Shown here: positions 2,278-62,111 of the stretch, piece by piece | Layout: each line of letters begins with the position of its first letter | How positions within the stretch are numbered: position 1 is the first letter of the stretch | From: Candidatus Poribacteria bacterium | GTDB lineage: Bacteria > Poribacteria > WGA-4E > JAJDTR01 | Direction of reading: 5' to 3' | Assembly: GCA_028820655.1 (NCBI GenBank) | Contig: JAPPIK010000021.1 | Coordinates: 30,113-94,112, forward strand | DNA length: 64,000 bases | The notes under the pieces: generated by a model | Told to the model about the DNA's origin: nothing | What the model saw: only the letters and a program-made list of their open reading frames with translations | The model's database searches: none | Translations under genes and position numbers: made by a program

Positions 2278-2291
2278 ATAGGAACCGTTGC

Positions 2292-3271: not shown

Positions 3272-3330
3272 CGATGTCAAGATGAAAGGAATAAATCGTG
3301 TCCGCCCCCGCTGTTGCGTGCAGAGGAGGA

Positions 3331-3358: not shown

Positions 3359-3392
3359 CCTTTCTCCCCAAACCTACTCTCAAGGTAACGCC

Positions 3393-4301: not shown

Positions 4302-4303
4302 CT

Positions 4304-4687: not shown

Positions 4688-4721
4688 CCCTCACCTACCA
4701 CATGATAAATGAGTAACCGAA

Positions 4722-5667: not shown

Positions 5668-6363
5668 ATAGCGGGGACGATAGAAATCCTGCGGCGACCA
5701 GCAAGTAAATGCCCAAGAATCGCTTTGTCATGACCTTAAACATAGGCCAAGCTATAACAAGATCCCGTCTTTATTGATTTGTCACGACCTACCGCTTCAA
5801 TCCGTGCTCAACGCAACCCACCGCCTTGCCGGCATTCCACTGCACAATTAACCCCTTCAGAAAATCCTCACCCCGCAGCATTCCTAAAATACTCCGGCTC
5901 GATTTGGTGCATCTGTAGGGTGGAATCAGGCGAATAGATAGTGAGTGCGATAGAGATCCCCTTCCCATCAGTGGCTGATCCCCGCAAATAGGCAGGGATC
6001 AAGCGAGCGAACAGACCTAGCGCAGAATGGGGAGTAGGAAGTTCAATCGCGCACTTTATCCAGTCGGTTGATCGATAGAGAATCTGATTTGCGACCACCA
6101 TAAATAATCCCACGCGACAGAGTTTCCATAGCAATCCCACAATCAATGGCGCTAAATTGCGCCCAGCGGTTTTAGGTTGTTACTCTTAAAAATGGTTCAT
6201 AAAGCAGCACGGTTCAAAATCACTCGACCACTATTCCAGCAGCTCAATTCAAAAGGAACTAGCCGCGTTGTCCCTGTTGGAACGTGTAAGCCACTTGCGA
6301 ATCCACCCGCAAATGTGATAGAATATCAATTCAAAAACTCAGAAAAATCCAATTCGTTGAGAG

Positions 6364-7386: not shown

Positions 7387-7635
7387 GAAGGCTTCGACAA
7401 TTTGATTCCTTGAAGTTGATGTCTCCCCGATTTCTCCACCGTTTACGCTTTAGAGGGCCCACACAATCCCTGTTAGCGGCGTAACAGAAGGAAACCGAAT
7501 GCGGCGGAACATTGACTGAGTAGAGGGAATGTTGGCGATTTGGGCGTCACGCTCGTAGAGTAATTCATTGAGCGCAGTTGATGTGGTTCGTAATATTCGG
7601 AACGAGTTTGGTGAATATGCAAGGAAAGGTACATA

Positions 7636-8502
7636 ATGGCACAACGGGACTACTATGAGGTGCTCGGCGTGAGTCGGGACGCATCTCCCGACGAAATAAA
7701 AAAAGCGTATCGCAAACTTGCCGTCAAATATCATCCTGACAAGAATCCGGGAAACGCCTCGGCGGAAGAAAAATTCAAAGAAGCCTCCAACGCTTACGAA
7801 GTGCTGTCTGATCCGAAGAAGCGCCAGATCTACAATCAGCGTGGACACGCGGGCGTTAACGATATGGGATTTCACGGATTTACGAACACAGAGGACATTT
7901 TCTCGAATTTTGGCGATATTTTCGGGCGCACGGTCTTCGGAAATTTTGGCGACGTCTTTGGGGATGTGTTCAACCGCCGAGGGCCCGGCACGCCTCAAGC
8001 ACAAGCGGTGGATACGCGCACCAAATTGACGATTTCGTTCATGGAGTCCGTGTATGGAACCGAAAAACGGGTGAACGTCGAGGGCAGAGATATCACAATC
8101 AAAATACCGGCGGGCATAAAAGACGGGCAGACTCTCCGGCTCCAGGGGCAGGGCGGGCGAGCATTTAGCGGCCGACAAACGGGTTCACTGTTGGTCACAA
8201 TCTCTGTTGAACCTCACCCGGATTTTCAACGCGAAGGGTTGGACCTCATCACGCAGGTTTCCATTCCTTTTACGCTCGCGGCGCTTGGCGGGAAGGTACC
8301 CGTACCGACCTTAACCGGAAAAATCAACTTAACAATACCCCAAGGAAGCCAACCGGGATCGCAATTGCGTCTGCGGGGCCAAGGCATAGTTGATTCCGCG
8401 GGGAGGAAGGGCGATTTGCGGGTATTGGTTCAGATAGAGATTCCGAAAGCGTTAACTCGGAAACAGAAAGAACTGCTCAACGAGTTCGACGAGACGCTGT
8501 AA
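7636..8502 (+). CDS. DnaJ-class J-domain chaperone without a zinc finger (CbpA-like)
   Basis: J domain (DYYEVLGV...KYHPDKNP) and a Gly/Phe-rich region (NFGDIFG). The CxxCxGxG zinc-finger repeats are absent. Two C-terminal beta domains. Confidence 0.8.
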
Positions 8503-41751: not shown

Positions 41752-42382
41752 GAAGTGAATCAGACCAATCGTTGTTCTAGGGGCTGAAATGAGATTCCTT
41801 TGATATTGAGTCACAGTGGGCAAAAGCATAGCACGTTCGGATTGGGTAAGGCAATGCAAAAACCGGGCATAGTACCTAATTATATTCATTAGAATTGACC
41901 ATACTTTGGGATTGACATTGTAAGTTGAGACGCTATAATTGAGGGCGGTCCATCATCCTCAAACGAACGCCATCGATCACTTGATGGCATGGGATAAACA
42001 CTCGGAAAACTAGAGGGCTATAGGTCCGATCGCCAGCTACATCCGAGGTTATTGCTCATGTCCCTTCGATTGATGCGATTCGTTGGGAGGTCGAATGGAA
42101 AATTGCCGCGAAGCAGTGGCGAAAAACGACATCTTGTGCGCTGATTCGCGATTCTAACGGAGTTTAGATTACAATTAGAATAATCTGTTCCACTCGTGAC
42201 GGTTGATGCCGGTTAAAGACGAAGACTGTTGCGGAAATATGTCTTACGGGCGTTTTATGCTCCGGTTTCCATCCGTGACCGGAAACTCTCCCACCGAATC
42301 CCGCGAGGCTTTCCAGTAAAGCACATACCAAGTTTCATGTTTGCCGCATGAGCCTAAATTCCCATCTTCAAGGAGATAGTAC

Positions 42383-43722: not shown

Positions 43723-44505
43723 ATGAAACATCTTGTTTTTACAATGGCTGCCTTAATGATTTTTGCGGTTGCATCTTTAACTGTGGTCGCACAGCAAATC
43801 GTATTGGACGAGAACTTCGATAACGTCCCGAATGGTGAACTACCGGATGGCTGGACAGTTCTCTACAACGACACTTATAATGGATTCGATGATGCGGCTC
43901 AAAAACAGGTGCCGTGTGACCCGCCGTGTCCCGGTTGGCAAGTATTGGACGGGGTATTGGATTCCGGTAATGGCGACCATGACAGAGAAGCCCTGTTTAT
44001 CATGGTTGGGAGTGGCTGGGAACAGATCACTGTCCAAGTCGATATGGTGCGGGCGCAGGGCACAGGGTATATGGGAACTGCGACCAACGTCCAGCCAAAC
44101 GGCGACCGATACGACTGCAGATTCATGACCGGCAACCCGGGCAATCTCCTGAATGCCGAAGGAACGAATGACTTTGACCGACGCGGCGCCAATCCCGTGC
44201 TATGGTTAGTTCAACGCGTGAATGGAAAGTTTACGGTTCTCGCTCAAGCAGACAACGTCGCCGACTTGGAGCGCGGACCGTTTCATCCGATGGAGATGAC
44301 GGCCAACGGCGCCAACTTGAGTTGTACCGCCGCAGGTGCTACTGTGGAGGCTACGGCGTTGGATGCGCTTCCCGCTGGCGGTGTCGGTTTCCATAACGGC
44401 GAATACGGTGCGTTCTATGACAGCGTGTTGGTGACGGCCGTTGCGACATCGGTAGATCCGAAAAGTAAATTGGCGGCAACCTGGGGACAGATTAAGCAGC
44501 AATAG
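43723..44505 (+). CDS. secreted jelly-roll (LamG/glucanase-like) protein with the shared C-terminal TWGxIK tail
   Basis: ATG at 43723 with an AAAGGAG RBS. Signal peptide MKHLVFTMAALMIFAVASLTVVAQQ. Ends ...SVDPKSKLAATWGQIKQQ. Confidence 0.75.
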   Translation: MKHLVFTMAALMIFAVASLTVVAQQIVLDENFDNVPNGELPDGWTVLYNDTYNGFDDAAQKQVPCDPPCPGWQVLDGVLDSGNGDHDREALFIMVGSGWEQITVQVDMVRAQGTGYMGTATNVQPNGDRYDCRFMTGNPGNLLNAEGTNDFDRRGANPVLWLVQRVNGKFTVLAQADNVADLERGPFHPMEMTANGANLSCTAAGATVEATALDALPAGGVGFHNGEYGAFYDSVLVTAVATSVDPKSKLAATWGQIKQQ

Positions 44506-44890: not shown

Positions 44891-45736
44891 TTGATGGCGA
44901 CGAATCAACTGTCAGGAGGTTTTATTCAGATGATAGTGTCAATCGCGAAACAGGTACTTCTGAGCGCAATTTGCTTGATGTTTCTCTTTTTTCCTTATGC
45001 GGAGTGTATCGCAAAGGTTTTAGAAATTGCCGACAGCAGGGAAAGTATCAACGACCTGCGCAGCAAAGCCGTAATCAACTTTGCACATCAAGGCGAAGGT
45101 AATCCCAATGTGCCACTCAAACTGGAAAACGAGGACGGATTTGGGGATAGGTGGTCTATCTTTTTGGGAACGGCTGAATATCACACACATCCCGCGACCA
45201 ATTGGGGCATTGAGATTAAGCCGAATCCGCAAGGGGAAAATGAATACCGATACATGACTATCGCTTGGAAGGCCGACCGAAGAAATAGAGGTTTGATGAT
45301 TCAACTTCACGGGAAATGGGGATTTGGCTGCGTCCACGAAGATTCGTGTTGGGACCATCGATGGTATGCCGGCGATTTAGATTCGATGGCTCCCGTATTA
45401 AAGAATCCCAAAGATGGTGGAAACGTACAAAAGTTCGAATTGCCCGAAGGAAGTTTTTCGCACGAGTGGAAGTTCCTTATTCTAGATCTTTCTCAGTATG
45501 CGATGAATGTGATTCACGCAAAACCCTTCAAAGTATTAAAAGGAGAATGGACAGTTAACGCAATAGCGCTTGATACGGATAATCCTTTCCCCAACGGCGG
45601 CGGAGCGCACTTTGACGTTATATACTTTACGCAGACGTTCGAAGAAGCCGAAGAGATAGAACGGTTGGCATTGGCGGTTTCCCCGGAGGATAAGGTGACC
45701 ACATCATGGGGAACAATCAAGGCTTCTCAACATTGA
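44891..45736 (+). CDS. secreted protein of unknown fold with the shared C-terminal TWGxIK tail
   Basis: N-terminal hydrophobic signal. Ends ...VSPEDKVTTSWGTIKASQH. Confidence 0.7.
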   Translation: MMATNQLSGGFIQMIVSIAKQVLLSAICLMFLFFPYAECIAKVLEIADSRESINDLRSKAVINFAHQGEGNPNVPLKLENEDGFGDRWSIFLGTAEYHTHPATNWGIEIKPNPQGENEYRYMTIAWKADRRNRGLMIQLHGKWGFGCVHEDSCWDHRWYAGDLDSMAPVLKNPKDGGNVQKFELPEGSFSHEWKFLILDLSQYAMNVIHAKPFKVLKGEWTVNAIALDTDNPFPNGGGAHFDVIYFTQTFEEAEEIERLALAVSPEDKVTTSWGTIKASQH

Positions 45737-45919
45737 ATCTGCTGACGTTGATTTGTTTCGAGTTGAGCGTTGGATTGGCGTTGTTTACCGGCATTGGGTC
45801 GCAGCAATGTTCATGGGCTATGAATCGGCGGTCTGTGCGAATTTGGTGATCGGATACAATTGAACGGATAAGTGCGAGATCATGACGACACAGGCAACTT
45901 TGACGGACGCGAATTATTG

Positions 45920-46501
45920 ATGAGAATCGCCATCATGGGTGGGACATTCAACCCCATTCATTATGCACATCTCTTGAGCGCCGAACAGGTATATGACCGG
46001 TTGGACTTTGATAAGGTTCTTTTTGTCCCGTCCGCACGCCCTCCGCACAAAGATAACGGAGACATCATTGACTCAGAGCATCGCTACCAAATGGCACTGC
46101 TTGCAACATCGGGTAACTCCCATTTCGAGGTGTCGCGAATTGAACTGGAGAGGACAGGTACCTCATACGCGATTCAAACCGTGAAAGAACTACAGAAGCA
46201 ATATGGAAGCGACTGCACACTTGCGTGGATTATCGGCGCGGACTCCTTAATTGAATTTAAGATCTGGAAGGATTTTGACGAACTGCTCGATATCTGCCAA
46301 TTTATCGCCACGACGCGACCAAGTTACAATCTTGACAACGTGCCCCCTACGCTGCGGGACCGCGTTCAGATATTTCCGGTTACCGGAGTCGATATTTCCG
46401 CGACCGAGATTCGCCGGCACGTTAGACAAGGGTTATCAATTCGGTATCTAGTGCCGGAGGCGGTCAGGCGGTATATCGACCAGCACAAATTGTATAAGTG
46501 A
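45920..46501 (+). CDS. nadD: nicotinate-nucleotide adenylyltransferase
   Basis: MGGTFNPIHYAHL (H/T-x-G-H motif). Followed by yqeK and rsfS as in the conserved operon. Confidence 0.9.
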   Translation: MRIAIMGGTFNPIHYAHLLSAEQVYDRLDFDKVLFVPSARPPHKDNGDIIDSEHRYQMALLATSGNSHFEVSRIELERTGTSYAIQTVKELQKQYGSDCTLAWIIGADSLIEFKIWKDFDELLDICQFIATTRPSYNLDNVPPTLRDRVQIFPVTGVDISATEIRRHVRQGLSIRYLVPEAVRRYIDQHKLYK

Positions 46502-46733: not shown

Positions 46734-46991
46734 TTGAAACACAAATGTAGTATCTGCGGACAATCTTTCGAGTTCAGCTATAGGAAGGGCAAAGACCTCC
46801 CGCCAAATTTTCCGTTCTGCAGTCGCCGTTGTAAAGCGATTGACTTGAAAAAATGGCTCAACCATGAATACCGAATAAGCACTGAATTGGCTAACTCCAA
46901 ATTTATGACCGAACAGGAACGAGAGGTGTTCGCGCGGTTTCTAATCGAATCAGGCGAGGTTGACGAATTGAGTGATGAAGACCAGAAATGA
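46734..46991 (+). CDS. YacG-like zinc-ribbon protein (DNA gyrase inhibitor family)
   Basis: CSICG...FCSRRCKAIDLKKW matches the YacG CPxC...FCSxRCKxIDLGxW signature. TTG start at 46734 with a GAGGGA-N7 RBS. The listed ORF begins earlier, at 46626. Confidence 0.5.
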   Translation: MKHKCSICGQSFEFSYRKGKDLPPNFPFCSRRCKAIDLKKWLNHEYRISTELANSKFMTEQEREVFARFLIESGEVDELSDEDQK

Positions 46992-47595
46992 CCGCGCCGG
47001 CAGGCACGAATTGATCGCGGATCCGAAGAGTGAGGAGATTAACGCATATCTTGGGGCTAAGCTTGAGGAAAAGCGTTACCAGCATGTCCTATCGGTGCGC
47101 GACATGGCCGTGGATTTGGCGGGCAAATTCGATGCGGATTTGCAGAAAACAAACCTTGCCGCTATGCTGCATGATTGCGCGAGGTGGATGAACACGCGCC
47201 AGCTATTCGATGCCGTCGCCGACTACGAGATTGGACTTGATGAATTTGAAAGAATTAGCGCGTCACTCTTGCATGCACTCGTGGGCGCTGAACTCGCGGT
47301 TGATGTTTTTTCAGTTGATGATGAGGAGATACTCAGCGCTGTCCGAAGTCATACTAAAGGAAACAGGGCAATGACGTTGGTTGACAAGATCTTGTTCGTG
47401 GCAGATTTTGCTGAACCGAATCGAACTTATCCGGAAGCAGAGTCGGTACGCCAGATCGCCAACGAAGATATCAATCAAGCGGTGTTTGAGGTAGCCAGAC
47501 ACAAAATCACCACTCTCCTTGAGAAGGGGTTAGTCATACATCCTGATACCATCGCCGTCTACAATGGGGCGCTGTGCGAAAATACAGATTTGTAA
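46972..47595 (+). CDS. yqeK: HD-domain bis(5'-nucleosyl)-tetraphosphatase YqeK
   Basis: HD motif H...HD (YQHVLSV...MLHDCAR). Conserved position after nadD. Confidence 0.85.
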   Translation: MMKTRNDRAGRHELIADPKSEEINAYLGAKLEEKRYQHVLSVRDMAVDLAGKFDADLQKTNLAAMLHDCARWMNTRQLFDAVADYEIGLDEFERISASLLHALVGAELAVDVFSVDDEEILSAVRSHTKGNRAMTLVDKILFVADFAEPNRTYPEAESVRQIANEDINQAVFEVARHKITTLLEKGLVIHPDTIAVYNGALCENTDL

Positions 47596-47625
47596 TTTGC
47601 CAGCGAAGCCCGAGGAGGAAAAAAC

Positions 47626-48039
47626 TTGGCAGGACATGCTACAGTGGATATCGTACAAGCGGCGGTAAGTGCGGCGTTGAGCCGACGCGCGCGCGACCCG
47701 ATTATCCTAGATCTCCGGGAGTTGGGGTCTTTTACGGATTACTTTGCAATTTGCAGTGGGACATCCGACATTCAGGTCGAAGCCATATCCGCTGCCGTCT
47801 TGGACGAGTTGGAAGAGAAATGGAACGTTCGGCCTTGGCATCGCGAAGGCTTGCATCAGTCGGATTGGGTCTTGTTGGACTACGTTGACTTTGTTGTGCA
47901 CATTTTTCTTGATGAAAAACGGAACCATTTCAATCTTGAGCGGCTCTGGATAGAAGCTCCAACGATTGAAGTGCCGGATGTTGAAGTAGAAGGCGATACC
48001 GGATTTGACTCGTTCGAGAAAGAAGAGTCAATCCTGTGA
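47626..48039 (+). CDS. rsfS: ribosome silencing factor RsfS (Iojap)
   Basis: Iojap signature DYFAICSGTSDIQVEAI...DYVDFVVHIF. Confidence 0.9.
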   Translation: MAGHATVDIVQAAVSAALSRRARDPIILDLRELGSFTDYFAICSGTSDIQVEAISAAVLDELEEKWNVRPWHREGLHQSDWVLLDYVDFVVHIFLDEKRNHFNLERLWIEAPTIEVPDVEVEGDTGFDSFEKEESIL

Positions 48040-48547
48040 ATTTTTTTGGCTACCTAGAATGTAGCCAACGAATACCGAATTATTAATTCCTACCATTCTC
48101 CCATTAACATCGCAGCTTGTGGACTTGCCATCTTTAATTCTGAGGTATTTGTTAGGAATTCTTTGCACTAGTTCGTGGTTGCCCTAGATGATTGCAACGC
48201 CACGTAGAACCTCGCTGATCAGGAGTCATTACGAAAACCGAGCGTCGTCCAAGCCATACCCGATTGAACTCGCAGAGGTAATCGTTCTTGATGTATGTCC
48301 GCCCTTTGAGTCGTTGAGTGACCGCGAAATCTCTATCGCCTTGAGATCTCTATCTCGGCCGTTATGGGATTCACTATGGGATCACTATCGCACTTCTTGT
48401 TCAGCCGCTTGATCCTTCCTTGTCCAGTCAGTTGAACTCCCTTGATTTATCCGCGAAGCTGATAAATCTCTTGATTGTCGTTCGCTCATTCACTTGATAT
48501 TCGACAATTTCTCGACTTTACCGACACAAAATCCATGAGGTGACAAA

Positions 48548-49534
48548 ATGCTACTCAAGCTGATTCCCCGGAGTCTTTTGTTTGCGGCACTGTGCCTCTG
48601 TCTGACGCGTGTGGAAATGGTGTTGAGTCAGGGACCCGTGGCCCAAGAGTCACAGATCGTCTTTACCTCCGAAAGGGATGGGAATTATGAAATTTACGTG
48701 ATGGATGCCAACGGCAAGTCTATAAAAAGACTCACACATCACCCGATGGCCGACGGCCAAGCTGTATGGTCTCCTGATGGAACGAGAATAGCATTTGCGT
48801 CCGATAGAAATGAGGGCAATATCCAGATTTTCATCATGGACAGCAATGGAGGAAATCCGACAAGACTAACGGACGGCGTCTGGGACTGATATCCAGCGTG
48901 GTCGCCTGACGGCCGCAAGATAGCATTCTCGGGCTATCCCGAGGAACTTAACCCTGAGATTTTCGTGATAGACACCGACGGAAAGAACCTGACGAGACTA
49001 ACGAACCAAATCGGGCTTGACACTGCACCGTCATGGTCACCCGACGGTCAAAGGATTGCCTTCATGTCCCGCAGGGGCGGGGACGATGACATCTTCGTGA
49101 TGGACGCTGACGGCGGTAATCAGACGAGGATAACACGCAATCTGGATCTCTCGGGTAACCCGTCTTGGTCGCCGGATGGACAGAGGATTGCATTCGATGC
49201 CTTTGAAGACAAAAACTTTGAAATCTATGTGGTGGATCCTGATGGAAAAAACCTGGACAGATTGACTAACAATCTAGTGCATGACCAAGCTCCCGCTTGG
49301 TCACCTGATGGGCGTAAGATTGCATTTAATAAATGGGAAGTAGTGCCTTTCCCCCACATCGAAATACATCTAATGACATCCGACGGAAAATATCTGAAAC
49401 GTCTTACCAATCTGCCAAATCATGATGATTACCATCCTGATTGGACTGATTCTTCAGGACGTGCTGTTTCTCCGACAGGCAACCAAATTACAATTTGGGG
49501 CAGGGTTAAGAAATTTTCGTCTCTATTTCGGTAA
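48548..49534 (+). pseudogene. PD40 (TolB-like) beta-propeller gene, first unit of the array, interrupted by an in-frame TGA at 48887-48889
   Basis: The 113 aa and 189 aa ORFs are in the same frame and separated by one TGA (...LTDGVWD*YPAWSPDGRKIAF...). Signal peptide at the N-terminus. The shared tail ...QITIWGRVKKFSSLFR is at the C-terminus. Confidence 0.6.
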
Positions 49535-49753
49535 TTTGTATCTAGCTGGCTGACATCCGACAACTGGGCAAGACCATTTGTATTAGGCTAAAAGGCGGTT
49601 GAAGGACGCCCTGAGCAACAAACTGCAAGGGGAGTTGACCGATGAATGGGCGTAAATCCTTAAAGCCCCTCCGAGGTCAAAGGCAAAAGGGATAGTTTCC
49701 GACTTTCTCGACAGAGAAGAGGGGAAGTTAGCCAGCCGCAGCGCCTTTGCAAC

Positions 49754-49921
49754 GGTGGCATTGGTTTGCACAACCGCTCTGGTAATGACGTTTCTTGTTG
49801 CCTCGGACGCCGAGGCAGGACCGCCTTGCGGCAAAGCAAATAGTGCAGATGGCTGGGTCGGTTGCAGTAAGTTTGTGAATCAGGTCTGGCATCGCAGGTG
49901 CATTCCGGAGGGGTGGAATTA
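49754..49921 (+). CDS. degenerate copy of a small Cys-containing secreted peptide gene (no good start codon)
   Basis: The DNA is ~80% identical over about 80 nt (49739-49819) to the leader region of the 53.8 kb peptide gene, which encodes SAFATVALV.TTAL.MT.LVA.DA.A. Only a GTG without an RBS is available as a start. Mature part GPPCGKANSADGWVGCSKFVNQVWHRRCIPEGWN. Confidence 0.2.
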
Positions 49922-50402
49922 ACCGTGACATTTAGCGTATAGACCATCCTGAATTGTTCATTATCCTGTTGTTGACTCATGACGCGTTTTTTCCATTGTC
50001 CTCCATCAATTGGCAAGCCGGCAAACAAGCGCTCAAACCATAGGCACCTGAATATGCTCGGTTGACCGGTTTGTGCCTTGTTTACCAATGCGCTGGCGTG
50101 TTGAGAGAGGGGTGGCATTTATCAATGTGCACGGAGATTGAAAATTCGGGATGAGCTATGCATTTAGCTCTTTTCATTGAGACATAAAGGAAAAACCTTG
50201 CAAGCTTGATGCTTGTCGGTTGCTTAATTTTATGGAAATCAAACCGGGGAATTAATTTCTCTGGTTCGTGCCGCATTCGGTTGGCTATTTTGTCACAAGA
50301 ACTAGGAGGTGTAATCATCAATCTTGATGATTTTCTCAAGCGATTCATGTGCTTTTCAATAATATTGCGACGCAACCGACATGAAACCTATGAGGGAGAG
50401 AG

Positions 50403-51362
50403 ATGCGATTCAAGCTGATACTCGGACATCTACTGTTTGCGGGACTGTGCGTCTGTCTGACGAGTGGAGAGTTGTGGTTGGGAAGCGCGCTCGCCTTTAA
50501 CACAAATCGAATTGTTTTTACATTCTGGAAACATGGCGACGGTGAAGTCTATGTAATGGATGCCGATGGCAGAAACCGAGAAAACCTTACAAACCATCCA
50601 GGGTATGACTTCGATCCGGATTGGTCTCCCGACGGGACGAAGATTGCATTCGGTTCCGGCCGAAACGACGTTTTTCAAATCTACGTAATGGACGCCGATG
50701 GTGAAAACCAAATGAGACTGACAGATGGACCGCGGCAAAAGCGGGAGCCAGACTGGTCTCCCGATGGGAGTAAGATTGCGTTCACCGTCGACGATGGGGT
50801 ATCTCATATCGGCGTGATGGACGCGGATGGAAAGAATCGTGTAAGGCTTGAAAACCGGGCGAGTGAGCCATCATGGTCTCCGGATGGGAGACAGATTGCA
50901 TTCGCGACCTCGAGAAACGGGGACCATGAAATCTTCGTGATAGGCGCTGACGGACAGGGACTTGAAAGGGTGAAGCACGGTTTGCGTGGACACAGCCCGT
51001 CGTTTTCTCCCGACGGACGACGGATTGCATACTATGAGTCGCACGAAGGATTCAGACACATCCATTCGGTCGACACTGATGGGAAAAATCGGGTGAGGCT
51101 CACGCACAATCAAGGGCATCATTCGCACCCCACGTGGTCTCCCGATGGGCAGATGATTGCATATGTGGCCTATAAAGATCTATTTTTCGGCGACGCAACG
51201 ATTCACTTGATGACCGCGGACGGAAAATATCTTAAGCAACTTAGCAGAATTCGCGATGGGATCGATTTCCAGCCCGACTTTAGTCCGGTGGGACTAGCTG
51301 TCTCTCACTCTTCCAAGACAGCTACAATTTGGGGTAAGATCAAAATACCGTTTGGGCAATAG
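50403..51362 (+). CDS. secreted PD40/TolB-like beta-propeller protein with the shared C-terminal tail
   Basis: Signal peptide. Repeated (D)WSPDG.(K/R)IAF blades. Ends ...SKTATIWGKIKIPFGQ. RBS GAGGGAGAGAG. Confidence 0.85.
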   Translation: MRFKLILGHLLFAGLCVCLTSGELWLGSALAFNTNRIVFTFWKHGDGEVYVMDADGRNRENLTNHPGYDFDPDWSPDGTKIAFGSGRNDVFQIYVMDADGENQMRLTDGPRQKREPDWSPDGSKIAFTVDDGVSHIGVMDADGKNRVRLENRASEPSWSPDGRQIAFATSRNGDHEIFVIGADGQGLERVKHGLRGHSPSFSPDGRRIAYYESHEGFRHIHSVDTDGKNRVRLTHNQGHHSHPTWSPDGQMIAYVAYKDLFFGDATIHLMTADGKYLKQLSRIRDGIDFQPDFSPVGLAVSHSSKTATIWGKIKIPFGQ

Positions 51363-51473
51363 AAGAAATAGACGTTATTTGGCAATTGGAGTCTTGTTTC
51401 CCGTGGGGGCGGGGAGTCGCGACCTGCAAATCGCTCCTACAGGTATAGAGCTCGAAAAAGGAGTAAATGACCT

Positions 51474-52472
51474 ATGAAAAACGTCAGCCATTATATCAGC
51501 AGATACCTGCTTCTATTGTTGTTGGGGTTACTGTTTGCGTCGTACAGCGCGGCGCAGGGATTTGTGCCGAGAATCGTCTTTGCATCGAACCGTGACGGGG
51601 ACTGGGACATTTACTCCATGGATGAGAACGGGGATAACGTGGTCCAGCTCACCAACAACCCGGCATCCGATCGCTTTCCCGGTTGCTCGCCGAACGGGAG
51701 AAGGATAGCGTTCGAATCAGAGCGCGGCGTTACGCCTGACCTGTATGTGATGGACAGCGATGGCAGTAACGTGGTAAGACTCACCCAAGACAATTTTTTA
51801 GAAGGCCGCCCCAGTTGGACGCCGGAGGGAACGAAGATTGCCTTTTCATCTTTCCGTTTTGCCGTTGGCAACTCGGAAATCTACGTGATGGACGGCGACG
51901 GAAATAACCTGATAAATTTGACAAACCACAAGTGGCAGGACGTTAGGCCGAGTTGGTCGCCAGATGGCAGCAAGATGGCGTTTACCTCCATGCGTGATGG
52001 CCGCTTCAATACTCCCAGGCATATTTTCGTGATGAATGCGGATGGAACGGAAAGGCGCAATCTCACTGCCGATACCCAACTAACGAACAGTCGGAATCCT
52101 AGTTGGTCACCGGATGGACGCAAGATTGCTTTTGACTCGCGGCGCCTCTTCCGAGATGGCCAGCGTGATGACATTTTCGTGATCACCGCTAAAGGAGAAG
52201 AGTTAGAAAGGCTTACGAACAAGGAGGGTGCCAATATTCAACCCGTCTATTCGCCGGATGGTACCAATATCGCCTTTGTGTCAACGCGTGATGGAGGTTA
52301 TAACATATATTTGATGGACACCAACGGGAAGAACGTTGTCAGACTCACGAAAACTCCGCATGGTATTGAAAACCTAAATCCCGCATGGCCTCACGGCGCA
52401 TTAGCAGTCAATCCCAGCGGAAAGTTACCGATATCTTGGGGAGAACTCAAGCGCACCCACAACCCGCGATGA
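51474..52472 (+). CDS. secreted PD40/TolB-like beta-propeller protein with the shared C-terminal tail
   Basis: Signal peptide and PD40 blades. Ends ...SGKLPISWGELKRTHNPR. Confidence 0.85.
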   Translation: MKNVSHYISRYLLLLLLGLLFASYSAAQGFVPRIVFASNRDGDWDIYSMDENGDNVVQLTNNPASDRFPGCSPNGRRIAFESERGVTPDLYVMDSDGSNVVRLTQDNFLEGRPSWTPEGTKIAFSSFRFAVGNSEIYVMDGDGNNLINLTNHKWQDVRPSWSPDGSKMAFTSMRDGRFNTPRHIFVMNADGTERRNLTADTQLTNSRNPSWSPDGRKIAFDSRRLFRDGQRDDIFVITAKGEELERLTNKEGANIQPVYSPDGTNIAFVSTRDGGYNIYLMDTNGKNVVRLTKTPHGIENLNPAWPHGALAVNPSGKLPISWGELKRTHNPR

Positions 52473-52628
52473 TGTCAATCGGGCTAGAGGACTGGGCGGG
52501 TCATTGAAAAAAATCTCCAGCGCCGATAGCGTTGCAAAATGGTTTGGAGCGCGTCCATACTGTACCTGCGCAGCCACTCAAAACAGGTTTCTTTACCGTT
52601 CTTTTTACGCACAACCAAGGAGAAAAAA

Positions 52629-53594
52629 ATGCGATTCGGGAGCATGCTTGGGACGTTTATTGGGTTCACCGTGATTCTGTTAAGCGGTGAACTGTGGTTA
52701 ATAGAAGGAATCGCCGCGCAGAAGTCACGGATTGTCTTTAGTCACCTCGGATTTGACAACTTTGAAATCTATGTAATGGACGCCGATGGAGGAAACCGGG
52801 AAAATCTTTCAAACCACCCAGTGCACGACGTGGATCCGGATTGGTCTCCCGACGGGACGAAGATTGCATTCGTTTCCAACAGAAACGATGCCAAATATCA
52901 GATCTACGTCATGGATGCCGATGGAACGAACCAGATTAGACTGACTGATGGACCGCGGGACAAGTGGCAACCTGACTGGTCTCCGGATGGGGGTAAGATT
53001 GCGTTCTCCGTCGACGATGGGGTTTATCGTATCGACGTGATGGATGTGAATGGAGATAATCGTGTGGTGCTTGAACACGAAGCTTCAGCGCCGTCATGGT
53101 CTCCGGACGGGGGTAAGATTGCATTCATATCGAGGAGAGACAAGGGCCGTGAGATCTACGTGATTGGCACTAATGGACAGGGGCTTGAGCGGCTGACGCG
53201 CAATTTCTTGGGCGGGCACAGCCTGTCGTTTTCTCCCGACGGTCGACGGATTGCATCCGACCCCTGGCATGGGGAATTCAATCACATCTATGTGATGGGG
53301 GCGGATGGAAAAAATCCCATGAGACTTTCGCACAATCAAGAGCATCATACGGCCCCGACGTGGTCTCCCGATGGGCAGATGATCGCATATGTGGTCTCTG
53401 ACGATGGCAATCCTTTCGACCGAAGAATTCACTTGATGACCGCGAACGGAAAATATATTAAGCAACTCAGCAAAGTTCGTGAGGGGATCGATGACCAACC
53501 GGACTTTAGCCCGGTGGGACTAGCTGTGTCCCCCGTTTCCAAAACAAGCACAACTTGGGGCACGCTGAAGAAAATGTCGTCCAGTTTCCGGTAG
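52629..53594 (+). CDS. secreted PD40/TolB-like beta-propeller protein with the shared C-terminal tail (close paralog of 50403..51362)
   Basis: ATG at 52629 with an AAGGAGA RBS. Signal peptide and PD40 blades. Ends ...VSKTSTTWGTLKKMSSSFR. Confidence 0.85.
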   Translation: MRFGSMLGTFIGFTVILLSGELWLIEGIAAQKSRIVFSHLGFDNFEIYVMDADGGNRENLSNHPVHDVDPDWSPDGTKIAFVSNRNDAKYQIYVMDADGTNQIRLTDGPRDKWQPDWSPDGGKIAFSVDDGVYRIDVMDVNGDNRVVLEHEASAPSWSPDGGKIAFISRRDKGREIYVIGTNGQGLERLTRNFLGGHSLSFSPDGRRIASDPWHGEFNHIYVMGADGKNPMRLSHNQEHHTAPTWSPDGQMIAYVVSDDGNPFDRRIHLMTANGKYIKQLSKVREGIDDQPDFSPVGLAVSPVSKTSTTWGTLKKMSSSFR

Positions 53595-53828
53595 TTTGCG
53601 CCTTCCCTGTCGAAATCCGGCGCCCAGGCAAGGACAAGTGCATCAAACTATGAGAGCCAAATGGTTTCATGTGATGGCGTAACGCGCCAATGCACAGAAG
53701 CAAGACTTGATAAAGATAATTGAAGATTTAAATTATCAAGGGTTCAGTGAGGCGTCGATTTAAGAGTTTAAGATTTGGAGTTGGCGGAGCGGAAAGTGTC
53801 GCTCATCCTTCTCCATGTAGAGGGAATC

Positions 53829-54032
53829 GTGGGTACTCGCAGCGCATTTGCAACAGTGGCATTGGTTAGTACGACCGCTCTGGCAATGACGTTGCTTGTC
53901 GCTCCAGATGCCAAAGCCGTTTGGTGTCCAGCGGGTTGCGGCCAAGGACAATTTTGTTGTTGGTATGGCGGAGGACACTATTTCTGCCGGGGGCTGGCGC
54001 CAGAGCCTGGCTATAAGTGCTGGAGGGTGTAA
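53829..54032 (+). CDS. small secreted Cys/Trp/Gly-rich peptide (bacteriocin- or defensin-like precursor)
   Basis: GTG at 53829 (or TTG at 53775). Predicted signal peptide MGTRSAFATVALVSTTALAMTLLVAPDAKA with an AxA cleavage site. Mature peptide VWCPAGCGQGQFCCWYGGGHYFCRGLAPEPGYKCWRV (37 aa, 6 Cys). A perfect hairpin follows. Confidence 0.4.
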   Translation: MGTRSAFATVALVSTTALAMTLLVAPDAKAVWCPAGCGQGQFCCWYGGGHYFCRGLAPEPGYKCWRV

Positions 54033-54045
54033 CCTTGAACCAGTA

Positions 54046-54075
54046 GACAAATCAGGGGATTACCCCTGATTTGTC
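54046..54075 (+). terminator. perfect 13 bp-stem hairpin downstream of the small peptide gene
   Basis: GACAAATCAGGGG atta CCCCTGATTTGTC, 14 nt after the stop codon and followed by a weak U-tract (tgcctt). Confidence 0.45.
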
Positions 54076-54109
54076 TGCCTTAAAGAGATGGAGGCATTCT
54101 TAGCGAAAA

Positions 54110-55117
54110 ATGAAATTCGAATTCATTAAGACGACTCTTCCCATCCTTAAGAACAGTTTGTATCTTTTGCTGACCGGTTTGTTGCTCGCGTCGTTAAACT
54201 CGGTGCGGGCGGTTGCGGACACGATTGCTTTCAGTTCAAATAAAAGTATCTACACTATGAATACTGATGGGACAAATCTCATCAAACTTGCTCCGGGCGG
54301 TACCCCCTCTTGGTCGCCGGATGGGACAAGGATTGTGTATTCCTTCGGACTCGGCAGGTTTCGCGGTGATGTCTCCGACATTTACATCATGGATGCCAAC
54401 GGTGCGAACGGCGTGAATCTCACCAAAGGACGGCACAAGGTTAACTCACTGCCTGCTTGGTCGCCCGACGGTACGAAGATAGCTTTTAGGTCCAATCGTG
54501 ATGGGAATTTCGAAATATATGTGATGAACGCCGACGGGAAGAATCCAATCAACCTCACACTGCACCCAGATAGCGACAGTTGGCCGACGTGGTCACCGGA
54601 CGGGAGGCAAATCGCCTTCGAGTCGTTGCAAGTTGCCGCCGGAGTGCTCAATCATTGCGATATATTTGTCATGGATGCCGACGGCGCCAATCGGACCAAT
54701 GTTACCCAAAACCCCCGCGCATACAATCGGACACCTGATTGGTCGCCGGACGGAAGCAAAATAGCGTTCGCGGCGGTGCGAAATGTCAATCGTGTAGACC
54801 TCTGGAATTCAGATGTTGACATCTTTGTGATGGATGCCGACGGAACTCATCCCGTAAGACTCACTGAAGATGCGCGGTTCAATTGGTTCCCAAGTTGGTC
54901 ACCGGATGGCAAAAGGATGGTCTTTGTTCGAGGAACGCAAGACGATGTCACCGACTGCGACATCTGTATCATGAACGCGGATGGAACCGGTCTTGAAAAC
55001 CTCACCCAAACCCCCGGTGTGGGCGAGTTCCACCCTTCTTGGAAACCAACTCCGTTTTCGGTATCATCACGAGGAAAGTTGACCGTTGTATGGGGAACGG
55101 TGAAACAGAATCACTAG
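54110..55117 (+). CDS. secreted PD40/TolB-like beta-propeller protein with the shared C-terminal tail (tandem unit 1 of 3)
   Basis: 335 aa. Signal peptide and PD40 blades. Ends ...SVSSRGKLTVVWGTVKQNH. Confidence 0.85.
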   Translation: MKFEFIKTTLPILKNSLYLLLTGLLLASLNSVRAVADTIAFSSNKSIYTMNTDGTNLIKLAPGGTPSWSPDGTRIVYSFGLGRFRGDVSDIYIMDANGANGVNLTKGRHKVNSLPAWSPDGTKIAFRSNRDGNFEIYVMNADGKNPINLTLHPDSDSWPTWSPDGRQIAFESLQVAAGVLNHCDIFVMDADGANRTNVTQNPRAYNRTPDWSPDGSKIAFAAVRNVNRVDLWNSDVDIFVMDADGTHPVRLTEDARFNWFPSWSPDGKRMVFVRGTQDDVTDCDICIMNADGTGLENLTQTPGVGEFHPSWKPTPFSVSSRGKLTVVWGTVKQNH

Positions 55118-55141
55118 CTATGGAGGCGTGACGAACGAGAA

Positions 55142-56149
55142 ATGAAATCCGATCCATTAGGAAGACTCTCCCCATCATTAAAATGCATCGTATTCCAATT
55201 GATGGCCGGTGTATTATTCACGTCCCTAAATTCGGCATGGGCTGTTGGGGGCACGATTGCTTTCACTTCACAGGGGAATATCTACACCATGGCAACCGAT
55301 GGGACAAATCTCATCGAACTGACTCAGGGTAGCAGCCCCTCCTGGTCGCCGGATGGGACAAAGATCGCGTATTCCTTCGGACTCGGCAGGTTTCGCGGTG
55401 ATGTCACCGACATTTACATCATGGATGCAAACGGCGCGAACCTTGTGAACCTTACCCAAGGACGGAAGAAAGTCAACATGTCGCCCGTTGTGTCGCCGGA
55501 TGGGAAAAGAATTGCGTTTGCCTCATACCGCGATGCCAATTACGAAATTTACGTGATGGATGCTGATGGGAAGAATCCGAAAAACCTTACTCTGCATCTG
55601 GATGACGATACCTCCCCGGCTTGGTCACCGGACGGGACAAAGATTGCCTTCGGGTCAAGGCAGGTTAGAGAAGACATATTGACTCACTCTGACATATTCG
55701 TGATGAATGCCGATGGCGCCAATCGAACCAATATAACCCAAAATCCCCGTGCATACAATATCACGCCCAGTTGGTCGCCGGTCGGAGACAAAATTGCCTA
55801 CGCAGCATTTTCAAATGTCGATCATGTAGGCCCGTTAAACGCTAACTTGGACATCTCTGTGATGAATGCCGATGGAACTGATGCCGTCAGACTCACTGAA
55901 GATGCACGTATGAATTTGTCCCCAAGTTGGTCGCCGGATGGTAAAAGGATTGTCTTCGTGCGAGCACACGAAGACGATCCCATATACTGCGACATCTACG
56001 CAATGAACGCGGATGGAACCGGTCTCGTAAACCTCACCCAAACCCCTATTGTGGGCGAGTTCGACCCTTCTTGGAAACCTACTCCGTTTTCGGTATCATC
56101 ACGAGGCAGGTTGCCCGTCGTGTGGGGAACGGTGAAACAGAAACGATAG
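55142..56149 (+). CDS. secreted PD40/TolB-like beta-propeller protein with the shared C-terminal tail (tandem unit 2 of 3)
   Basis: 335 aa. Ends ...SVSSRGRLPVVWGTVKQKR. Its start is exactly 1032 bp after the previous start, with a conserved spacer gctatggaggcgtgacgaacgagaaATGAAAT. Confidence 0.85.
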   Translation: MKSDPLGRLSPSLKCIVFQLMAGVLFTSLNSAWAVGGTIAFTSQGNIYTMATDGTNLIELTQGSSPSWSPDGTKIAYSFGLGRFRGDVTDIYIMDANGANLVNLTQGRKKVNMSPVVSPDGKRIAFASYRDANYEIYVMDADGKNPKNLTLHLDDDTSPAWSPDGTKIAFGSRQVREDILTHSDIFVMNADGANRTNITQNPRAYNITPSWSPVGDKIAYAAFSNVDHVGPLNANLDISVMNADGTDAVRLTEDARMNLSPSWSPDGKRIVFVRAHEDDPIYCDIYAMNADGTGLVNLTQTPIVGEFDPSWKPTPFSVSSRGRLPVVWGTVKQKR

Positions 56150-56173
56150 CTATGGAGGCGTGACGAACGAGAA

Positions 56174-57181
56174 ATGAAATACCGTCGATTAGGAAGACTC
56201 GCCTTATCTTTAAAAGGCATCCTTTTCGTTTTGATAATCGGTGTATTATTCACGTCCTTAGATTTGGTACGGGCGGTTGGGGACACGATTGCTTTCACTT
56301 CACAGGGGAATATCTACACTATAGACACTGATGGGACAAATCTGAAAAAACTTACTCGAGGCTATAATCCCTCTTGGTCGCCTGACGGGGCAAAGCTCGT
56401 GTTTTCCTTCGGTCTCGGCAGGTTTCGCGGTGACGTCACCGACATTTACATCATGGATGCGAACGGTGGGAACCGCTTGAATCTTACCAAAGGACGCCAC
56501 AAACAGAATGCCCTGCCTGCTTGGTCGCCCGATGGGACAAAGATAGCTTTTGAGTCCAACCGTGATGGGAATTCCGAAATCTATGTGATGAATGCCGAGG
56601 GGAAGAATCCCAAAAACCTCACGCTGCACCTCGATGACGATACGTGCCCGACGTGGTCACCGGATGGGACAAAGATTGCCTTTTGGTCAAGGCAAGTCGC
56701 TGCCGGGGTGCTGAGTCTTTCGGATATATTTGTAATGGATGCCGACGGCTCCGATCGGATCAATATCACCCAAAATCCCCGTGCCTCCAATAGGACGCCA
56801 AGTTGGTCGCCGGACGGAAGCAAAATCGCTTACACGGCAGTGCGAAATGTCAATCGTGTAGACCCTTGGAATGCAAACTTGGACATCGTTGTGATGAATG
56901 CCGACGGAACTCATCCCGTCAGACTCACTGAAGATGGACGTGCAAATTGGCTCCCGAGTTGGTCACCGGATGGCAAAAGGATCGTATTCGAACGAACGAT
57001 GCTCAACGATCCCATTTACGCCGACATCTATGTGATGAACGCGGATGGAACCGGTCTTGTAAACCTCACCCCAACCCCTCTTGTGCCCGAGTGGGACCCT
57101 TCTTGGAGACCGACTCCGTTTTCCGTATCATCACGAGGCAAAATGCCAACCCGATGGGCGGAGATAAAAGAAAGGCGCTAA
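56174..57181 (+). CDS. secreted PD40/TolB-like beta-propeller protein with a degenerate shared tail (tandem unit 3 of 3)
   Basis: 335 aa. Ends ...SVSSRGKMPTRWAEIKERR (WG changed to WA). Its start is again exactly 1032 bp after the previous start. Confidence 0.85.
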   Translation: MKYRRLGRLALSLKGILFVLIIGVLFTSLDLVRAVGDTIAFTSQGNIYTIDTDGTNLKKLTRGYNPSWSPDGAKLVFSFGLGRFRGDVTDIYIMDANGGNRLNLTKGRHKQNALPAWSPDGTKIAFESNRDGNSEIYVMNAEGKNPKNLTLHLDDDTCPTWSPDGTKIAFWSRQVAAGVLSLSDIFVMDADGSDRINITQNPRASNRTPSWSPDGSKIAYTAVRNVNRVDPWNANLDIVVMNADGTHPVRLTEDGRANWLPSWSPDGKRIVFERTMLNDPIYADIYVMNADGTGLVNLTPTPLVPEWDPSWRPTPFSVSSRGKMPTRWAEIKERR

Positions 57182-57374
57182 ATCAGGTTAGGGCGAATAA
57201 AGTTGCGATTCGGTGCAAATCGACAGAGGTAAAAGTCAACTTTCCTCAACTTCTCGGATGGTGGCAGGATATTGCGACAATGTGTTAGTTGAAAAGATGG
57301 TTGACGGTCGTTGATTTGAGAACCGCCAATCGGTCGGTAGGCGCGACGATTGAAAACAAGAGGCTATTAGCACA

Positions 57375-58298
57375 TTACGGCCGGATTATCTCCAATGTCT
57401 CCTCAAGGTTCTTGATTCCGGCGGTTGTTCCGATTGCCGTGACGCACGCCGCACCCGCCGCCGAGGCTAGTTCGCTCGTGCGTTTCAAATCCCACCCCAT
57501 CACGATTCCTGCGAGAAATCCCGCGACATATGCATCCCCAGCCCCCGTAGCATCAACGACGTCGACCTCGTAGGCTGGCACATAAATTTCGTCAGTGCCG
57601 GTACGGACGTAACTTCCGCGTTCTCCCATTTTCAATCCGACAGTCCGGATTCCATAATCCATAAGGAATCTTGCAATCTCGGGAGGCGAATCAAGCCCGG
57701 TGAGTTGCTCGGCCTCTTCAATGCTAGGCAAAAATACGTCAATGTACGGCAAGCAAGGCTCTAGTGTTTTCAACCAGTTTCCCGATGTGTCCCAGACGGT
57801 ATCCAGAGATGTTGTCACGCCCGCGTCTTTGGCATGGCGTAGGATGCGCGCCGTAGGTTCACCATCTAACTTCGGCATAACAAATGTACCGGCGACATGC
57901 AATATTTTGCTCGACCGAATCAAATCCAAATTCATGTCGTCCTCGGACAGGACACTATTTGTTCCCATGTAGTGGAGGAAACTCCGCTCACCGTCGGACG
58001 CGACAGCGACAAATGTAACGGGCGAGTTGATGTCGGCATCGCGAATCATCGCACGCGTATCCACTCGATTGTTATCCAAGACCTGCAACACCATGTCGCC
58101 AAACGTGTCGGTGCCGATCCTTCCCATGGCTCCGACATTGATTCCCAACTTGGAGAGGGTGATCGCCGTATTGTTGGCGCAGCCGCCGGAGTGCATTTCA
58201 AACTCATCAAACACCATCAATCTGCCCTTTTCCGGAAACGTATCAATAGGGCGCCCTATCACATCTACCACGAAAATACCGAGAGACAATACATCCAT
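57375..58298 (-). CDS. PfkB-family carbohydrate kinase (ribokinase/2-keto-3-deoxygluconate kinase-like)
   Basis: C-terminal DATGAGDAYVAGFL anion-hole motif. N-terminal GG-containing sugar-binding region. Start taken at MDVLSLGIFVVD. Confidence 0.8.
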   Translation of the reverse strand: MDVLSLGIFVVDVIGRPIDTFPEKGRLMVFDEFEMHSGGCANNTAITLSKLGINVGAMGRIGTDTFGDMVLQVLDNNRVDTRAMIRDADINSPVTFVAVASDGERSFLHYMGTNSVLSEDDMNLDLIRSSKILHVAGTFVMPKLDGEPTARILRHAKDAGVTTSLDTVWDTSGNWLKTLEPCLPYIDVFLPSIEEAEQLTGLDSPPEIARFLMDYGIRTVGLKMGERGSYVRTGTDEIYVPAYEVDVVDATGAGDAYVAGFLAGIVMGWDLKRTSELASAAGAACVTAIGTTAGIKNLEETLEIIRP

Positions 58299-58587
58299 GC
58301 AACCACCTCGTAATGGGTACATCGCGAGAACACGTGTTCTATTGTGTCACGCGATGTGTTCTGATTCCGAGTGTAATATCGTCATTTCTATATAGTCCGG
58401 CCATGTCTAAATAGGTGAAGATGTGGTTTGACACTACCACATTTTAGTCCAATGGTGGACCGGTAAGCGTCTGCAAATTTGCTAACCGTAGTGGCGCGGC
58501 TCAAATCATGAGAATGTGGGGATAGGTATCTGGAATTGAATAAACGGGTACAATTCTGTCTCACCGTCCGGATGATGAAGATTAGCC

Positions 58588-61232: not shown

Positions 61233-62111
61233 ATGGATATCGACTGCTTGCAACATTTGTTGACGGTTGAGGAACGTACGGCGTTTGACCGGGACGGGTT
61301 CATAGTGGTTGAAAACGCACTTCCTGACTCTCTTGTGAAAGATCTAAACAGGGCGATGGACCGTATTGAAGGGGCGGTCGATTTTATCGGGAAAGACGAT
61401 CTGTTTCTGGAATTGATCGATTGGCCAACGGTGTTTCCAAAGGTATTTGGAATCCTCGGCTGGAATATCCATATTTACCACACGGTTGCACTCGCGAGAC
61501 CACCGGACACGGGGGAACAACGCCACCGGAGTGCGCGTCTTGCGTGGCATCAGGACAGCGATCGGGTAAACGCCGATATTGCACCGGGACCGACAATGCG
61601 AATCTCGCTGAAGGTGGGTTATCTGCTGACAGACCTAACCAAGAAAAATCACGGGAATCAGCTATTTATTCCCGGTAGCCATCTCAAGCGAGAGTTGGAA
61701 TGGCCGGCTGACGGTGTTTCGAATCCCCCTGGAGTTTACACGCTTCAGGCGCCGGCAGGTTCAGCCGTTCTCTTCGAGCAGCGAGTCTGGCACACGGGAA
61801 GCCCAAATTTATCCGATGTAACTCGAAAAACTCTGTATTACGGCTACAGTTACCGCTGGTTCCATCCCCGCGATGATAGAACAGTATCGCACTACATGGA
61901 ACGTTGCGATCCGATTCGCAGGCAGTTGCTGGGCGCAAAAACAAAAGCTCTGGGGCTCACGTCGCCAAAGCCGGAGGATGTGCCGTTGCGAACTTGGATG
62001 AAGGAACATATGGGGGAAGAAGCGGTTGCCGACAAATACACGCGCTTGGTCGGCGGAACTTCGGTGTCGTTTGCACGAAATCCGGATGACCATTATGCCG
62101 TGCTCAAATGA
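61233..62111 (+). CDS. phytanoyl-CoA dioxygenase (PhyH) family oxygenase
   Basis: WHQDSD ... HTGSPN motifs. Second PhyH-family member in the window. Confidence 0.75.
   Translation: MDIDCLQHLLTVEERTAFDRDGFIVVENALPDSLVKDLNRAMDRIEGAVDFIGKDDLFLELIDWPTVFPKVFGILGWNIHIYHTVALARPPDTGEQRHRSARLAWHQDSDRVNADIAPGPTMRISLKVGYLLTDLTKKNHGNQLFIPGSHLKRELEWPADGVSNPPGVYTLQAPAGSAVLFEQRVWHTGSPNLSDVTRKTLYYGYSYRWFHPRDDRTVSHYMERCDPIRRQLLGAKTKALGLTSPKPEDVPLRTWMKEHMGEEAVADKYTRLVGGTSVSFARNPDDHYAVLK

Follow-up and report, generated by a model that had tools for sequence, protein, structure and literature searches.

Poribacteria are dominant, uncultivated symbionts of sponges. A 64,000-nt stretch of a Candidatus Poribacteria contig (JAPPIK010000021.1; hereafter the window) carries a tandem array of seven genes for PD40 repeat proteins at 48548-57181, which raises the question of what kind of gene family such an array represents. 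Is it a rapidly diversifying, recently duplicated repertoire of surface or receptor proteins, of the contingency or antigenic-variation type, as the original prediction from the DNA alone leaned toward, or an old and stable family? Our analysis argues for the latter: the array encodes TolB-like propellers of four subfamilies under purifying selection, and it is probably a stable, subfunctionalised family of exported binding modules, which carry a phylum-specific C-terminal module and would be docked via this tail. Coordinates refer to the whole window and to the plus strand unless stated otherwise; L numbers denote fetched loci and P numbers homologous proteins.

Six-bladed propellers distinct from TolB

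Listing of open reading frames (ORFs), repeat finding and a Pfam scan revealed seven co-directional ORF units with PF07676 PD40 repeats, in agreement with the original prediction. In all seven members, PD40 is the sole real domain matched, with four to five repeats scored per protein, E-values of 2e-53 to 4e-33 and 113-178 bits, against a gathering threshold of 20.9. A hydrophobic N-terminal segment of the signal-peptide type, also anticipated, was read from the sequence in seven of seven members and is modelled as a helix (residues 6-28) in member 5. A neighbour-joining tree divides the array into four subfamilies: A, comprising members 5, 6 and 7 (54110-55117, 55142-56149 and 56174-57181; 335 residues each); B, with member 3 (51474-52472; 332 residues); C, with members 2 (50403-51362; 319 residues) and 4 (52629-53594; 321 residues); and D, with member 1 (48548-49534). 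Judging from its homology with member 2, member 4 probably starts at the ATG at 52629 rather than at 52539.

The ORF of member 1 contains an in-frame TGA at 48887-48889, at the position of an Arg conserved in all seven orthologues and paralogues compared. Because this conserved Arg is replaced and 12 of 40 genes in the window use TGA as their regular stop, we interpret it as a nonsense mutation, unless it is a sequencing error or polymorphism; given that the remainder of the ORF is intact, a mutation would be very recent. Recoding of TGA was rejected on the same grounds, loss of the conserved Arg being what a CGA to TGA change would produce. The array thus comprises six intact genes and one nonsense-interrupted copy.

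The AlphaFold2 model of member 5, built from a 77-sequence alignment, is a six-bladed propeller with a mean predicted local distance difference test score (pLDDT) of 82.6. Following the signal peptide (residues ~1-35), the propeller spans residues 38-311, its ring being closed by three N-terminal strands and the C-terminal strand 305-311, and the remaining residues 312-335 form a flexible tail that is disordered in the model (pLDDT <65). Structural similarity search using Foldseek revealed that member 5 most closely resembles the TolB propeller (4r40_C), with an E-value of 1.4e-21 and a root-mean-square deviation of ~2.5 Å over ~290 columns; the next-best matches are propellers of S9 peptidases.

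As TolB is the top structural match and its model TIGR02800 the top NCBIfam match of all seven members, the array could be taken for extra copies of this housekeeping Tol-Pal protein. The scores of 168-302 bits, however, stay below the equivalog cut-off of 343.15 bits, and the TolB N-terminal α/β domain is absent from the Pfam matches, the propeller of member 5 beginning at residue 38, directly after the signal peptide. In addition, no tolQRA or pal gene was found among the neighbours, of which the ORFs at 45872-46501 and 46972-47595 were not scanned, and TolB would not be expected in seven copies with a foreign tail. Cut-off, N-terminal domain and operon together effectively refute TolB identity, leaving it very improbable. 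Compared to the C-terminal propeller of TolB (PF07676; PDB 4r40, 2hqs and 1c5k), the array proteins share the six-bladed PD40 architecture and, by prediction, export to the envelope, but they lack both the TolA-binding N-terminal domain and the tol-pal operon, are only ~22% identical, occur in multiple copies and possess an extra C-terminal tail. They are six-bladed, TolB-C-like propellers but not TolB.

The S9 peptidase matches bring up a different reading, in which the propellers, acting in trans like those of S9 peptidases or Tricorn, would be modules of capture or gating in the periplasm and serve nutrient uptake or proteolysis in a heterotrophic symbiont. Genes for a glycosidase, a sugar kinase (pfkB) and an oxidoreductase do lie around the array, and the DPPIV_N, Dpp5 and lasso-peptide isopeptidase profiles do match its proteins; these matches, however, involve propeller parts only and lie far under the cut-offs, and the PD40 repeats in common account for them. 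No α/β-hydrolase catalytic domain of the S9, DPP-IV or lasso-peptide isopeptidase type is fused to any member, since the proteins stop 24 residues past the last blade, and no catalytic domain is adjacent. Moreover, the tail recurs on lectin-like LamG, discoidin and Kelch proteins (see below), which points to a common targeting logic and not to proteolysis. We consider capture or gating quite unlikely. The columns invariant in all seven paralogs hold structural PD40 motifs only, which favours binding modules and disfavours enzymes.

An old family under purifying selection

The starts of members 5-7 (54110, 55142 and 56174) are spaced by exactly 1032 bp, as had been noted, and each unit consists of a 1008-bp gene and a 24-nt spacer. 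The spacers between members 5 and 6 (55118-55141) and between members 6 and 7 (56150-56173) both read CTATGGAGGCGTGACGAACGAGAA and are identical at 24 of 24 positions. The very recent duplication deduced from this regularity did not hold up. The three units differ at 22-25% of their bases (75-78% DNA identity and 68-71% protein identity), no two of them share an identical run of more than 37 nt, and their pairwise dS (synonymous substitutions per site) is 0.54-0.77. Such divergence shows that the duplication is not recent and that the periodicity is not an artefact of assembly. An assembly collapse or mis-join, once named as a possible refutation, has nothing in its favour beyond the exact spacing itself, and its probability is close to negligible: the same 1008+24 unit was assembled independently in L004 and, four times, in L006, with a near-identical spacer, and recurs in genomes that include assemblies reported as single chromosomes.

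As the spacer is kept across species with only 1-3 changes in L004 and L006, its identity within the array reflects constraint rather than youth. Recent gene conversion as the cause is not favoured, given this conservation across species and the ordinary identity of the flanking sequence. A related leader, GATGGAGGCRT...GAAAAATG, lies upstream of other A-type genes. In the form GATGGAGGCRT…GA(A/G)AA-ATG it occurs in the array at 54070-54109, 55118-55141 and 56150-56173, as well as before A-type genes in L003-L007. Its GGAGG lies ~15 nt ahead of the start codon, unusually distant for a Shine-Dalgarno sequence, and is kept across paralogs and species.

A scan of one genome per species yielded 25 Poribacterial loci from 18 assemblies and 53 loci from other phyla. 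In the neighbour-joining tree, each of members 5-7 has its nearest neighbours in other Poribacteria genomes and not in this array, which places their split before the divergence of those species; a few duplications are lineage-specific. The other members are more distant still: members 2 and 4 are 64% identical, and the remaining pairs are 35-47% identical with saturated dS. Copy number per array ranges from 2 (L004 and L008) through 8-12 (L003 and L005-L007) to 15 in 18 kb (L010), and broken PD40 copies are present in the arrays of several genomes. Altogether, this is an old family evolving by birth-and-death, that is, by tandem duplication and loss among long-lived paralogs.

The locus is also a native island of Candidatus Poribacteria, with a conserved position downstream of rsfS in related genomes. 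The top database homologue is 99% identical and comes from a Candidatus Poribacteria metagenome-assembled genome. In L085 the array follows rsfS, the counterpart of which is the window ORF at 47626-48039, whereas in L001 it is the downstream side that matches the window, the array being followed by a gene for a 643-residue protein and a PhyH gene. L008 carries close homologues of two tail-bearing non-PD40 proteins of the window upstream of its array. The GC content of the locus shows no anomaly.

Pairwise dN/dS (dN, nonsynonymous substitutions per site) among members 5-7 is 0.27-0.39. When broken down by structural class, it is 0.28-0.35 in the loops of the B-C and D-A face, 0.12-0.22 in the loops of the opposite face and 0.23-0.43 in the strands, so that purifying selection acts in every structural class (0.12-0.43), with one loop face moderately relaxed or divergent. 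Sequence entropy over 45 subfamily A sequences peaks in the B-C loops (1.11), followed by strands (0.47-0.87), D-A loops (0.51) and the SPDG (A-B) and DxDG (C-D) turns (0.35 each). The earlier remark that surface-loop residues differ is borne out in part: the B-C loops are the most variable, as against 0.35 in the SPDG and DxDG turns, yet their variability is only modestly higher and selection is purifying throughout. Uniform purifying selection without loop-focused variation, which had been set as another possible refutation, describes the array only in its first half. Ongoing diversification found no support, as dN/dS does not exceed 0.43 in any class.

How do these results bear on the contingency or antigenic-variation reading, that of a repertoire which was duplicated recently and diversifies fast? 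The strong copy-number differences between related genomes and the pseudogenes would suit it, as would the peak of variability in one loop set, and relatives with a type IX secretion system (T9SS)-like C-terminal domain suggest a location at the cell surface. Synonymous divergence, the shortness of identical runs and the closer kinship of members 5-7 with genes in other genomes than within the array speak otherwise, as does a dN/dS below 0.45 in every structural class. Moreover, no recombinase or reverse transcriptase was identified among the ORFs of at least 80 residues in or directly beside the array, of which those other than PD40 and small-peptide genes, mostly overlapping ORFs in other frames or on the opposite strand, were not individually scanned. 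We judge this reading improbable. What survives of the preference for a variable receptor repertoire over a housekeeping function is the dense expansion, the distinction from TolB and a copy number of 2-15; rapid variation is not borne out.

We propose instead that the array encodes Sec-exported, single-domain propellers of four old subfamilies. As the B-C loops, located on the face opposite the SPDG and DxDG turns, differ most, these proteins would be ligand-binding modules with divergent specificities rather than enzymes.

A C-terminal tail shared by unrelated proteins

All seven members end in ...V-S-P-x-x-K-x-x-x-W-G-x-[ILV]-K, a tail of ~22-24 residues that the original prediction had rightly listed as shared. 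It is encoded at 49460-49531, 51294-51359, 52401-52469, 53520-53591, 55043-55114, 56075-56146 and 57107-57178 in members 1 to 7, respectively. When the whole window was scanned for W[GA]x[IVLM]K, 11 ORFs proved to have the motif in their last 22 residues, namely the seven propellers and four non-PD40 proteins. Of the latter, a predicted exported protein of 260 residues (43723-44505) ends in ...SVDPKSKLAATWGQIKQQ and has neither PD40 repeats nor any Pfam match, a 281-residue protein (44891-45736) ends in ...AVSPEDKVTTSWGTIKASQH, and a tandem pair of weakly LamG-like, predicted exported proteins (2354-3271 and 3393-4301) both end in ...DVQPLSKMNITWGSLKQG(R/G)F; in the Pfam scan, two of the four had no match and one had a weak LamG match. 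Significant similarity between the proteins at 43723 and 2354 is confined to the tail. The AlphaFold2 model of the 260-residue protein is of low confidence (pLDDT 58, from a shallow alignment), with the tail again disordered. The tandem pair is 79% identical overall and 100% identical over the last ~60 residues, tail included, a pattern that points to gene conversion or to strong constraint on the 3' ends.

The tail might be thought to act as a velcro strand of the propeller. This was rejected: it is strand 305-311 that closes the ring, the model shows the tail as disordered, and proteins of non-propeller fold carry it too.

Further analysis of the fetched loci gave the consensus P-[FL]-[SA]-V-S-P-x-G-K-L-x-T-x-W-G-x-[LVI]-K from 148 distinct ORFs, usually followed by 3-4 (range 0-11) mostly polar residues, of which the last is often Arg. 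Of the 770 ORFs in the Poribacterial loci, 158 end in the motif, as against none of 1645 in the non-Poribacterial PD40 loci, which include Latescibacterota and Caldilineaceae genomes; its internal background is ~1e-4 per 20 residues. All 18 Poribacteria assemblies sampled possess the tail, one as a WGxFK variant. When a profile of the 11 window tails was searched against 1.84e9 representative proteins, 124 matches with E <= 1e-3 were obtained, with the motif at the extreme C-terminus in 108, and the full-length non-PD40 carriers that end in the tail include Kelch, LamG, discoidin and uncharacterised folds. We delimit a candidate class of exported proteins, of any fold, by [FL][SA]V-x-P-x-x-K-x-x-T-x-W-G-x-[ILVM]-K among the final 20 residues; it takes in the 11 window ORFs, which represent four or more unrelated families, and the 148 distinct ORFs of the Poribacterial loci. 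Isolated tails matched no NCBIfam model even at E <= 10, and literature searches with motif strings and WGxIK variants, and with Poribacteria combined with TolB, PD40, C-terminal or type IX secretion, found no paper describing the motif. On these sequence patterns, the tail may be an undescribed targeting or docking tag.

Comparison with known C-terminal sorting elements revealed a connection to the FlgD-Ig domains of T9SS type. In L086, three PD40 paralogs carry ...SVEPQSKHFTTLGEIKRTSLMQ|NFPNPFNPETWIPY..., in which the tail motif, with L in place of W, immediately precedes a FlgD_ig/T9SS-type domain, and the next PD40 gene ends in ...SVEPQQKRFTTFGEVKRSALSKN*, exactly where the FlgD_ig domain would start. 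This region (2140-7876, on a contig of unassigned taxon) encodes the three PD40 proteins with FlgD_ig domains (468-475 residues), the tail-only PD40 protein and then a tail-bearing Kelch protein. The NHL-repeat protein P0156 and P0239 show the same order, with the tail immediately upstream of the C-terminal FlgD_ig domain. In the window itself, a minus-strand gene (39271-41889) encodes an 871-residue protein with glycoside-hydrolase-like N-terminal domains and a genuine FlgD_ig/Por_Secre_tail C-terminal domain that no WGxIK tail precedes, which indicates that this genome uses both kinds of C-terminal element.

The array proteins themselves, by contrast to the genuine FlgD_ig domains recognised at 39271-41889 and in P0156, contain no T9SS type-A domain (TIGR04183, PF18962 or PF13860; a β-sandwich of 70-100 residues). 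The lone weak TIGR04183 match, in member 3, scores 18.7 bits against a cut-off of 23 and falls inside the propeller (residues 261-303). Like T9SS/FlgD-Ig domains, the tail is a C-terminal element common to unrelated exported proteins, and it precedes such a domain in some relatives; it differs in being 22-24 residues long and predicted disordered instead of a 70-100-residue β-sandwich, in matching no model and in occurring on sigma fusions tethered to the inner membrane. Such C-terminal domains were reported on Poribacterial WD40-type proteins by Kamke et al. (2014), who found no Por genes (PMC3909097). The tail also recalls the PEP-CTERM/exosortase, LPXTG/sortase and GlyGly-CTERM tags, which are likewise short, clade-restricted C-terminal motifs on secreted proteins of varied folds. 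However, whereas in PEP-CTERM and sortase-type signals a hydrophobic transmembrane helix and a basic cluster come after the signature motif, no such helix follows the tail motif, only the few mostly polar residues given above, and no cognate sorting enzyme was identified.

The membrane-tethered fusions are P0076 and P0087, two Candidatus Poribacteria homologues of member 5 annotated as sigma-70 family, which join an extracytoplasmic function (ECF) sigma factor, one transmembrane helix, a periplasmic PD40 propeller and a terminal tail. They indicate that PD40 also serves as an extracytoplasmic sensor domain in the phylum, and that the tail is not simply an outer-membrane secretion signal.

We propose for the tail a role in docking or retention, or as a linker, by which the binding modules would be tied to an envelope partner or pathway that they share, and that the tail-only proteins would be versions without the FlgD-Ig/T9SS-like C-terminal domain. 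Several points weigh against a stable family of exported, tail-docked binding modules. The signal peptides were judged by eye and not with a predictor; the dN/dS values come from pairwise Nei-Gojobori counts, which are blind to a few positively selected sites; and the pattern of loop variability is expected of any PD40 protein, because the SPDG and DxDG turns are structural. The restriction of the tail to Poribacteria is based on 78 loci picked via PD40 homology. Several proteins with a FlgD_ig C-terminal domain, including the 871-residue protein of the window, have no tail, which shows that tail and domain are separable. Moreover, the tail of P0076 and P0087 must stay periplasmic, and there it could be an inherited passenger.

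Embedded peptides and the wider setting of the array

The array also harbours small genes of a second kind. At 53775-54032, 78 bp upstream of member 5, lies a gene for a predicted exported peptide of 85 residues, with a conserved leader and the cysteine pattern C-x3-C-x5-CC-x8-C-x10-C; a degenerate copy (49695-49922; repeat D19) offers no good start codon from which the whole leader could be translated. Homologues of the peptide form 43 clusters of ~85-92 residues with no Pfam domain. They share a near-invariant leader of ~50 residues (…AKRKVSDFLLREEGMVGNRSAFATAALVSTTALAMTLLVAPDAKA) that includes a hydrophobic segment, followed by a hypervariable, unalignable core of 30-40 residues with the cysteine pattern C-C-CC-C-C. 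A reading of the leader as a Flp/Tad pilin or a Tat signal was rejected, as Pfam gives no match and the leader lacks the EY and RR motifs that are key to them. Other copies lie inside PD40 arrays in L003 (5463-5570, 6891-7130 and 8450-8740), L008 (9719-9994), L004 and L081-L085.

These peptides suggest a further role for the propellers, as carriers, receptors, immunity or maturation factors for the Cys-rich peptides in a two-component system. Every peptide copy examined belongs to a PD40 array and has a propeller gene downstream of it, in the window, in L003 (three times), L004 and L008 and in all five loci fetched via divergent peptides, and at least 12 of the 43 peptide clusters seem to share a contig with a member-5-type homologue. 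Such co-location may, however, reflect no more than a shared duplication-prone region: there is no one-to-one stoichiometry of peptide and propeller, and many arrays and tail-bearing propellers have no peptide gene nearby, as in L005-L007. TolB propellers bind disordered peptides, and TolB-colicin peptide complexes are among the Foldseek matches. The strong constraint on the leader (proportions of synonymous and nonsynonymous differences, pS 0.41 and pN 0.07), next to an unalignable core, also accords with a partnership. On balance we think such a partnership unlikely.

In their conserved leader, hypervariable mature region and C-C-CC-C-C spacing, the peptides resemble conotoxin and knottin precursors, a likeness seen as spacing alone; they differ in their bacterial origin and in the ~50-residue leader with its hydrophobic segment. 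We take the cysteine pattern to be akin to cysteine framework VI/VII. The peptides have no sequence similarity to sponge knottins such as asteropsins. The characterised relatives of asteropsins are encoded by the host (PMC12426817, PMC13418204).

Of the remaining neighbours, a gene of the PhyH (phytanoyl-CoA dioxygenase) family at 61233-62111 lies beside the island, in a syntenic position shared with L001; Kamke et al. (2014) noted an expansion of PhyH genes in Poribacteria (PMC3909097). Scanning of 47000-58500 against Rfam found no family, and the PADLOC defence models matched nothing meaningful.

Enrichment of PD40/TolB-like propellers in sponge microbiomes has been published (PMC5735121, PMC9531527), and Kamke et al. 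(2014) described abundant exported repeat proteins in Poribacteria, while leaving the secretion route of the eukaryote-like proteins open (PMC3909097). The array itself is a new instance of this known enrichment of eukaryote-like repeat domains. It belongs to the same group of organisms and the same domain classes (WD40, PD40/TolB-like, Kelch and LamG) as the repeat proteins reported from sponge symbionts, but those reports consist of domain counts. No description was found in the literature of a tandem array of four subfamilies, of the C-terminal tail and its relation to FlgD-Ig, or of the embedded peptide family.

Tentatively, and with a rather low chance of being right, the tail might mark a hitherto unrecognised envelope-targeting or docking pathway that is related to FlgD-Ig/T9SS-like secretion but workable without that domain, and that organises much of the symbiont's set of host-facing binding proteins, of the PD40, Kelch, NHL, LamG and discoidin types; the PD40 arrays and the peptides would then form a two-component secreted system directed toward the sponge host or competitors.

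For the biology of these symbionts, the findings have three consequences. The PD40 arrays are ancient, conserved islands of several subfamilies with gene turnover, not fast-evolving contingency loci. Disulfide-rich peptides of bacterial origin in sponges may come from the embedded peptide family. Finally, the phylum-restricted tail provides a searchable tag with which to define the set of PD40, Kelch, NHL, LamG and discoidin proteins that carry it and to seek the machinery that recognises it.

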